Assembly: GCA_948943595.1 (NCBI GenBank)
Contig: CARBBL010000001.1
Coordinates: 1-52,438 of the forward strand
DNA from: an uncultured Lachnospiraceae bacterium
GTDB lineage: Bacteria > Bacillota > Clostridia > Lachnospirales > Lachnospiraceae
Direction: 5' to 3'
Length of the DNA stretch: 52,438 nt
In this document: positions 44,355 to 44,729 of the stretch, piece by piece
Numbering within the stretch: position 1 is the first letter of the stretch
Layout: each line of letters begins with the position of its first letter
The notes under the pieces: generated by a model
Database searches by the model: none
What the model saw: the letters and a program-made list of their open reading frames with translations, nothing else
What the model was told of the DNA's origin: nothing
Position numbers and translations under genes: made by a program

Positions 44355-44729
44355 GTATTTGGAGAGCCTGCTAAAGCGGGCAGATGGGAGTTAGAGTGAA
44401 ATCAAAGATTTCACTCATCCTGATTTGTAGGCCCGCCAAAGCGGGCAGATGGGAGTTAGTGTGAAATCAAAGATTTCACTCATCCTGATTTGTAGGCCCG
44501 CCAAAGCGAGCAGATGGGAGTTAGAGTGAAATCAAAGATTTCACTCATCCTGATTTGTAGGCCCGCCAAAGCGAGCAGATGGGAGTTAGTGTGAGAAGTA
44601 CTTCTAACTGCCTGTGGCAGTTTCCACTCACAGCAAAGGCTGTTTCGTGGAGAAGTTCACACCGAAAAACGCAAAAGACTGCGTTTTTCATTTCTATTTG
44701 AGCCGCCAAAGGCGGCATGGAGGATTAAT
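44355..44729 (+). repeat. mosaic repeat locus R10: about 3.5 tandem copies of a 65-bp A+B unit (44355-44585), then C, F and E modules ending in GGAGGA-N5-ATG of the next gene
   Basis: The unit is gcccgccaaagcgRgcagatgggagttagWgtgaaatcaaagatttcactcatcctgatttgtag. Copies alternate in SNPs. Confidence 0.85.

Follow-up and report, generated by a model that had tools for sequence, protein, structure and literature searches.

The 52,438-nt stretch of DNA analysed here (hereafter the window) covers positions 1 to 52,438 of the forward strand of contig CARBBL010000001.1 (assembly GCA_948943595.1), from an uncultured Lachnospiraceae bacterium. By far the top-scoring tandem array in the window, at 44357-44594 on the plus strand, consists of 3.6 head-to-tail copies of a 65-bp unit that contains a GC-rich hairpin (A) and an AT-rich hairpin (B). 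This array is quite probably a local tandem amplification of the A+B module of a high-copy, modular, strand-oriented family of intergenic repeats in Lachnospiraceae. The array, the family and its spread, a bias in its orientation, covariation in the hairpins, the fusion of repeats to gene starts, one insertion relative to orthologs, and a greater likeness of units within than between arrays were all observed directly. No description of such a Lachnospiraceae repeat family was found in full-text literature searches aimed at one, and the family is apparently undescribed so far; the kind of element is ordinary and resembles the BOX repeats, bacterial interspersed mosaic elements (BIMEs) and mycobacterial interspersed repetitive units (MIRUs) of other bacteria. 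The array is probably not dedicated to a specific function, and the most interesting aspect of the family is its portable edge of ribosome-binding site and start codon, not the array itself.

Tandem Repeats Finder reported a period of 65, 3.6 copies, 95% matches, 0% indels and a score of 418 for the array, and the consensus of the unit was the same as that first written in an initial annotation of this DNA. Three full units (44366-44430, 44431-44495 and 44496-44560) are preceded by a partial linker, ATTTGGAGA, at 44357-44365 and followed by a partial fourth unit at 44561-44594, all on the plus strand. Covariance-model matches were placed at 44366-44425, 44431-44490, 44496-44555 and 44561-44609. 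The two halves of the unit matched 6 and 3 places in the window, compared with 0 expected from 100 shuffles. The initial annotation had described two positions at which the copies alternate. The AGAGTG/AGTGTG position does so across the four copies (A,T,A,T), but the GCGGGC/GCGAGC position does not (G,G,A,A), and GCGAGC introduces a C-A mismatch into the hairpin A stem of copies 3 and 4. Copy 1 differs in the 5' arm and loop of hairpin A, with GCCTGCT in place of GCCCGCC. With its regular period near 65 bp and its palindromic, hairpin-forming repeats, the array superficially resembles the repeat-plus-spacer pattern of a degenerate or unusual CRISPR array. Whole units are 95-100% identical, however, including the inter-hairpin segments that would be the spacers, complete units are scattered through the genome and occur in different genera, and neither Pfam searches of 30 window open reading frames (ORFs) nor precomputed Pfam hits for the neighbouring genes revealed a cas domain. 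A CRISPR array, which the initial annotation had also discounted, was therefore rejected and has a negligible chance of being correct.

The unit is composed of hairpin A, linker 1, hairpin B and linker 2, in that order. Hairpin A (GCCYGC-NAAA-GCGRGC) lies at 44366..44381 and again at 44431-44446, 44496-44511 and 44561-44576; its consensus in the unit, GCCCGC-CAAA-GCGGGC, folds as a 6-bp stem, as first annotated, with a 4-nt loop. Hairpin B (GTGAAATC-AAA-GATTTCAC) lies at 44396..44414, 44461-44479 and 44526-44544. Its stem, originally given as 7 bp, was only approximately so, with 8 bp around a 3-nt loop in the predicted fold and 10 bp in the AGAGTG copies. Linker 1 reads AGATGGGAGTTAG[A/T]GTGA in the unit consensus. 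Its core, GCAGATGGGAGTTAG[A/T]GTGA at 44378..44399, is the most conserved part of the unit, and a 17-nt core motif, GATGGGAGTTAG[A/T]GTGA, recurs at 44383-44399, 44448-44464, 44513-44529 and 44578-44594. Linker 1 resembles a ribosome-binding site and start codon, with the Shine-Dalgarno look-alike GGGAG, five nucleotides of any sequence and GTG, and hairpin B begins at this GTG. Linker 2 (TCATCCTGATTTGTAG) occupies 44415..44430, 44480-44495 and 44545-44560; besides GGGAG-N5-GTG, the second near-invariant linker of the unit reads CATCCTGATT. Across 41 units from many genomes the invariant columns were located in the linkers and not in the stems, at GGAGTT.G..TGAAAT and ATCCTGATT. The reverse complement of linker 2 (minus strand, 44415-44425 and equivalents) is AAUCAGGAUGA and contains CAGGAUG, on the strand opposite to the gene-co-oriented one. 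This heptamer is the repeated CsrA-binding motif of CsrB, and its presence here may be a coincidence.

Hairpins A and B show compensatory base changes across the family. A covariance model was built from nine units and used to search 751 kb of sequence, which yielded 203 matches. In the resulting alignment 93.2% of cells were paired, and 14 pairs changed on both sides, whereas shuffles averaged 7.6 such pairs and slid-partner controls gave 7-12. All six stem pairs of hairpin A changed on both sides (pair 4, for example, was CG in 63 and UA in 47 sequences), as did seven of the eight stem pairs of hairpin B. Units on the sense strand folded 2-4 kcal/mol better than antisense units.

The wider distribution of the family was examined by searching a single genome of each species for exact matches to GCAGATGGGAGTTAGNGTGA, which gave at least 118 stretches in at least 29 genomes; the counts given below for other genomes are those among the matches listed. 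All carriers were Lachnospiraceae or unclassified Clostridiales metagenome-assembled genomes (MAGs), among them many mouse-gut MAGs, Acetatifactor, Parablautia intestinalis D8-82, a Roseburia MAG and, with a single hit, [Clostridium] fimetarium. The collected sequence contained 214-238 copies of the core. Cores were spaced 61-66 nt apart in 72 pairs (64 nt in 35, 65 nt in 26 and 63 nt in 7), and 118 occurred alone, with 41 runs of two, 15 of three, three of four and two of five. Since runs of two to five copies at this spacing are common in the family, the window array is one of the longer examples of a common arrangement rather than a singular case. All copies within runs were direct and none alternated. 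In the window itself, modules of the family were found at about 11 intergenic sites on both strands, and 11 segments, about 1.5 kb in total, matched other genomes. A+B occurs singly or doubly at 38653-38776(+), 47726-47869(-), 9074-9158(-) and 12024-12152(-), mixed with the recurrent modules C (a branched hairpin), D (a hairpin), T1 and T2 (terminator-like) and A2 (gene-proximal). The view of the array as an amplified form of A+B modules seen singly elsewhere thus holds, in the window and in at least 29 Lachnospiraceae genomes.

Known RNA families and mobile elements did not account for the repeats. Rfam gave no hits at gathering score over the whole window and chance-level hits only (E>1) at E<=10 over 44150-44780. 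Neither an exact-pattern scan of viral contigs nor a blastn search of phage and plasmid records returned a family match. No recurrent transposase was detected within about 8 kb of the 118 loci and the window when ORFs of at least 120 aa were clustered; the only recurrent ORF families there were ABC ATPases, response regulators, kinases and MATE pumps. The 30 window ORFs contained no transposase domain in Pfam searches.

The copies have a clear relation to genes, as judged with a crude model of ORFs of at least 100 aa. Outside such ORFs lay 190 of the 214 cores. The downstream gene was co-oriented with the copy in 147 cases and opposite in 23, and the upstream gene was co-oriented in 128 and opposite in 36. 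A composite of T1, ATTTCTA and TTTGAGCCGCCAAAGGCGGCATGGGGGATTAGT-ATG was present in 25 copies; behind at least 14 of them, an ORF of 55 to >560 aa begins at a constant distance. In about 20 ordinary cores the core's own GTG or ATG opened an ORF of at least 170 aa, and 39 of 132 clusters (about 30%) ended in a gene start. Although the initial annotation was essentially right about the array, both this co-orientation with genes and the likeness of linker 1 to a ribosome-binding site and start had been missed.

One such fusion in the window could be compared with orthologs. A mosaic at 47726..47990 on the minus strand, with the order A'-core, C, degenerate T2 and A-B-A-core, ends in a core whose GGGAG-N5-GTG starts a 421-aa gene (46494-47759, minus strand). 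Orthologs of this gene share its start residue (M-[S/N/K/R]-R...) and have the same ABC ATPase gene upstream, and the gap between the two genes is 1 nt (GGTGATTTAAT|TTG), 39 nt or 104 nt without family modules, compared with a mosaic of about 250 nt in the window. As the orthologs keep the gene pair with a short, repeat-free gap, the 47.8-kb mosaic is a lineage-specific insertion that fills precisely the space from a stop codon to the following start. It supplies a ribosome-binding site, which at the tight ancestral junction lay within the upstream gene. [quoted passage not shown] The 118 loci yielded no orthologous pairs of filled and empty sites. ORF callers begin the 421-aa gene at an ATG inside the core GATGGGAG (46494-47771, minus strand), which creates a spurious N-terminus, MGVSV or MGVNV; orthologs put the start at the GTG four codons later, and the same miscalled ATG start was seen in L013, L079 and other loci. 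The T2 module of this mosaic (47870-47892, minus strand) is degenerate, with GTCTGCATAGTAGGCG instead of GTCTGCATAGCAGAC. As a single anecdote, this fits a position inside an operon, as if termination were selected against.

Fusion to gene starts raises the main rival, or complement, of local amplification, namely a MIRU-like mobile cassette that inserts at start codons with its own ribosome-binding site, start and short ORF, hands ribosomes on to the downstream gene through a 4-nt overlap (translational coupling), and forms arrays by serial self-insertion into the start-codon copy that it creates. MIRUs are described as direct intercistronic repeats of 40-100 bp at tens of loci, oriented like their flanking genes, which insert at start codons so that an internal ORF overlaps the downstream start by 4 nt, with little effect on expression and with variable copy number (PMC12548453, citing Supply et al. 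1997). The present family shares with them direct units of 61-66 nt, an intergenic location and co-orientation with genes. In 10 of 14 cases of the 65-nt units, including the array and the 421-aa junction, each GTG opens a 22-codon ORF whose TGA stop and the following GTG share this 4-nt overlap. The exact stop-to-start position of the 47.8-kb mosaic, where orthologs have as little as 1 nt, and the opening and closing of arrays with the same core of about 21 nt are also as expected of such a cassette. The commonest unit, however, is 64 nt long (35 of 72 pairs) and has an ORF of only 8 codons, which terminates at the TGA of CCTGATT and leaves about 36 nt to the following start; the coupling is thus restricted to the 65-nt subtype and is not family-wide. 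Variation in the stems is compensatory rather than synonymous, no defined termini, clear target-site duplication or enzyme were found in the 118 loci or the window, and the likeness of units within arrays, described below, favours local duplication. The family further differs from MIRUs in phylum, in its unrelated sequence, in its hairpins with compensatory stems and in the interleaved modules C, D, T1 and T2. We consider a cassette of this kind possible but clearly less probable than local amplification. A coding role for the repeat was also rejected: the 22-codon ORF is not kept in the 64-nt and 63-nt units, and this together with the compensatory stem changes makes a peptide unlikely.

The hairpins could instead serve as DNA recognition sites for a single-strand transposase, of the Y1/RAYT or IS200-IS605 type, as in the repetitive extragenic palindromes (REPs) and BIMEs of enterobacteria, with the orientation of copies reflecting the replication strand. 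In Firmicutes the direction of genes is correlated with that of replication. The family resembles BIMEs in its GC-rich extragenic palindromes and conserved linkers, arranged in mosaics of which some are tandemly amplified; the GC-rich hairpins of the array units carry a 5' GTAG (TTTGTAG-GCCCGC), and mismatches in hairpins A and B are strand-symmetric. Yet BIME palindromes alternate and their GTAG/GTGG is recognised by RAYT, whereas the copies here are direct, also within clusters, and GTAG is not conserved, with GTAC, GTAT, GAGT and GAGA being commoner across the family. Neither a Y1/RAYT nor a recurrent transposase was seen in the window or within about 8 kb of the 118 loci. The window moreover appears to belong to one replichore but has copies on both strands, and the array follows its downstream gene and not the majority strand. 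A REP/BIME-like origin is thus unlikely. REP and BIME sequences are transcribed intergenic elements with known effects on attenuation and mRNA stability (PMC3049150).

The pneumococcal BOX element (boxA-boxB(n)-boxC) offers a further comparison. It is a modular intergenic repeat with a tandem-variable internal module that is predicted to form stem-loops if transcribed, and it has no transposase of its own; its longer arrays vary more between strains, and it is thought to affect co-transcribed genes (PMC3049150). Its boxA and boxC ends are inverted termini, and mobilisation by ISSpn2 has been proposed (PMC3049150). The present family is modular in a similar way, with A+B runs of 1-5 copies at 61-66 nt flanked by C, D, T1, T2 and A2, and T1 and T2 recall the pneumococcal SPRITE repeat (PMC3049150). 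It differs from BOX in taxon and sequence, in its strong co-orientation with genes, in a linker that looks like a ribosome-binding site and start and is fused to real gene starts, and in that no consistent inverted termini were seen at the mosaic ends. Because of the differences in taxon and sequence and the failure to find BOX-type inverted termini, the family is not regarded as BOX or MIRU proper, and in the features compared above it does not fit REP/BIME or CRISPR.

The array is part of a larger composite. Positions 44359-44734 are repeat throughout, as judged by matches to other genomes, and form a 376-bp composite of the array, C, T1 and A2. Module C (44595..44658, plus strand), a branched hairpin of the form GAAGTACTTCTAAC..CTGCCTGTGGCAG..ACAGCAAAGGCTGT..GGAGAAGTTC, follows directly after the last core; it is also present at 47906-47944(-) and in 9 copies in the collected loci. 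Module T1 (44664..44689, plus strand) is a terminator-like hairpin, GAAAAACGCAAAAGACTGCGTTTTTC, with a T-rich tail. It was the sole terminator-like site on the plus strand of the region in a terminator scan, and it recurs at 11965-11989(-), at 1080-1104(-) and in 15 copies in the collected sequence. Module A2 (44690..44732, plus strand), the gene-proximal leader, reads ATTTCTATTTGA-GCCGCC-AAA-GGCGGC-ATGGAGGATTAAT-ATG, with the hairpin followed by a GGAGG Shine-Dalgarno sequence at 44719-44723 and by the ATG of a 135-aa ORF (44730..45137, plus strand). The start codon of this gene is therefore the final triplet of the repeat composite. The array had been annotated as lying immediately upstream of the gene, but 135 nt, filled by the other repeat modules, separate its last base from the ATG at 44730, and the gene lies behind the terminator-like hairpin.

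The 135-aa gene encodes an acidic protein without a Pfam domain. Its 747 homologs, at 70-83% identity, likewise have none, and those in other species start at the same ATG-AAA-AAY-TTY without repeats. No synteny of an array upstream of this gene was seen in other species, where homologs occur in unrelated, repeat-free contexts. These settings are varied and include a position inside an agr-like operon, one after gltX and one beside a PIN-domain gene. Such different neighbourhoods between species suggest a multi-copy or mobile small gene. The array occupies the 935-bp divergent spacer between a DedA-family gene (43282-43791, minus strand) and the 135-aa gene and points to the latter. Upstream of the array, the only sigma-70-like match on the plus strand is ATGACA-16-TATAGT at 44187..44214, which agrees with the consensus at 10 of 12 positions and is a pattern match only. 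If this promoter-like site were used, the array would be inside a transcribed leader. A promoter inside the unit was rejected: no sigma-70-like match was found in the array, from which the TATAAA loop of some B hairpins is absent. A replication origin in the spacer (43795-44729) was also rejected, with 17 DnaA-box matches against 17.1 expected and no skew switch.

With a promoter-like site upstream and a terminator-like hairpin downstream, the array could belong to a dedicated regulatory RNA of about 470 nt, extending from 44187-44214 to T1, that titrates an RNA-binding protein or ribosomes with its repeated GGGAG or hairpin motifs or acts as a leader for the 135-aa gene. The region around the array folds strongly (z = -8.8), and GGA-containing motifs are repeated in it. 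The same modules are present at the other window sites and at hundreds of places elsewhere, however, beside unrelated genes. In other species the modules are missing beside homologs of the 135-aa gene, no Rfam family was found at E<=10, and GGGA is predicted to lie in a stem and not in a loop. A dedicated regulatory RNA is very unlikely.

Units were more alike within arrays than between them (identities of 0.927 and 0.833, and within a single genome 0.891 and 0.846), a difference that fits local duplication, slippage, unequal recombination or concerted evolution. Three alleles were seen at the array itself. Four cores are present in the window and in contigs L002 and L140, and three cores are present in contigs without unit 3 (L001/L139 and L004) or without unit 2 (L003). 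Over 3.5-6.5 kb these contigs do not differ from the window except by a 65-bp deletion. The two deletions make the copy-number hotspot proposed in the initial annotation plausible, but they fit repeat collapse during assembly, discussed below, as well as a hypermutable site. The true copy number in the source organism could also exceed four. Many independent metagenome contigs break off inside A2, about 32 nt short of the ATG at 44730, or within the array (L005-L010 and L144). One of them, L010, joins the gene to another module set that matches the 11931-12070 mosaic. It has about 3x coverage, is probably a chimera joined at the T1-A2 repeat common to the two sites, and was not used as evidence.

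The most probable scheme is as follows. The family is built from hairpin modules A, B, C, D, T1 and T2, joined by the linkers AGAUGGGAGUUAG-GUG and CAUCCUGAUU. The intergenic position of the mosaics and their shared direction with the genes make it most likely that they are transcribed within the neighbouring mRNAs. Mosaics often fill the exact stop-to-start gap, the last module supplying the ribosome-binding site and start codon, and the gene downstream can therefore stay active after an insertion. The GGGA of internal copies may pair with the UCCU of the following linker around hairpin B. Such a third helix, between AGAUGGGA of linker 1 and UCCUGAUU of linker 2, was predicted by RNAalifold and in single-unit minimum free energy (MFE) folds, and the GGGA:UCCU pairing appeared in the MFE or centroid structures of single units. 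With the internal GGGA masked in this way, only the last copy would be open. Copy number would shift in whole units, by replication slippage or unequal recombination of near-identical 65-bp units. The 376-bp composite would act as a leader reaching to the ATG of the 135-aa gene, and any effect on the mRNA of this gene, through structure, attenuation at T1 or stability, would likely be a side effect.

Several observations weigh against parts of this scheme. The contigs are short-read metagenome assemblies, and the three-copy and four-copy forms could reflect repeat collapse, since both shortened forms would be valid shortcuts through a de Bruijn repeat graph. In the third helix 91.6% of cells were paired, but with conserved G-U pairs and changes on one side only, so the helix is suggestive and not proven; it was fitted to a model of our own construction, and the GGGA:UCCU match may reflect just two conserved linkers. 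The asymmetry between G-U and A-C mismatches was small (20:15 in hairpin A and 18:6 in hairpin B), and with so little asymmetry hairpins A and B would form on either strand or in DNA. Three of about eight window sites (33.7 kb, 38.7 kb) are oriented against both neighbours. Finally, the terminator-like T1 stands between the array and the 135-aa gene, and the array could be part of a separate transcript or have no effect.

The other sites of the family in the window include 1042-1180, 8377-8620, 9038-9158, 11931-12152, 28598-28652, 33682-33890 and 38653-38830, in addition to those at 44357-44734 and 47726-47990. On the minus strand, a mosaic at 11931..12152 has the order core-B-A-core-D-T2-T1-A2-ATG, one at 1042..1180 has the order D-T2-T1-A2 and ends in a GTG gene start, and a copy at 9038..9158 consists of B-A-core and a C-type module. 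On the plus strand, 38653..38830 carries core-B-A-core-B followed by A-type variants, and 33682..33890, which runs against both flanking genes, carries A-core, C-type modules and a terminator-like hairpin.

The window has a GC content of 33-41% and contains serS, parB, parA, rsmG, a chemotaxis operon, mnmG, two-component systems and ABC transporters. The presence of parB, parA, rsmG and mnmG, all on the minus strand (5914-7614, 20060-20803 and 29142-31061), identifies it as an origin-proximal chromosomal region. The chemotaxis operon, between rsmG and mnmG, is complete (cheA/W-type kinase, cheB, cheR and methyl-accepting chemotaxis proteins). An 821-aa protein is encoded at 31178-33643 (minus strand), and its sole Pfam hit is the major vault protein 'shoulder' domain (PF11978, E = 1e-20). 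Other repeats were also noted. Tandem repeats with periods of 54 bp (2.1 copies) and about 17 bp (TCATCTTACAAAGAAAAA...) at 28749-28895 adjoin the degenerate family copy at 28598-28652, in the interval from cheR to the mnmG region. A second dispersed repeat of 85 nt, unrelated to the family, is present at 5764-5848 and 17281-17365 (76% identical) and comprises a GC-rich segment and a palindrome with a 12-bp stem, ACTATGAAAGTC-GAA-GACTTTCATAGT; it has few copies in other Lachnospiraceae loci (8 hits, with both strands of the palindrome counted). An 80-bp tandem repeat at 52267-52438 (2.2 copies, 98% identical) is likewise unrelated to the A+B family and has 0 copies in the 118 collected loci. 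It reaches the end of the window, whose sequence probably ends in an unresolved repeat.

A more far-reaching interpretation, to which we would give only a small chance, is that the family is a portable translation-start cassette of gut Lachnospiraceae, which would settle in stop-to-start gaps with a ribosome-binding site and start codon of its own, in which all but the last copy are masked by the GGGA:UCCU pairing and in which copy number and the optional terminator-like modules form a heritable, reversible dial on translation or read-through of dozens of unrelated downstream genes. If that were true, one RNA-binding factor specific for the invariant linkers might read all copies. Lachnospiraceae are a dominant family of the gut, and the literature covers small interspersed repeats well for pneumococci, enterobacteria, neisseriae and mycobacteria. 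The family described here breaks short-read assemblies and misleads gene callers. The copy number of MIRUs is used in variable-number tandem repeat (VNTR) typing, and the present family could serve as a VNTR-type strain marker. As a repeat that reaches the start codon and provides many unrelated genes with a ribosome-binding site, it is also a natural test case for the tolerance of intergenic insertions inside operons.

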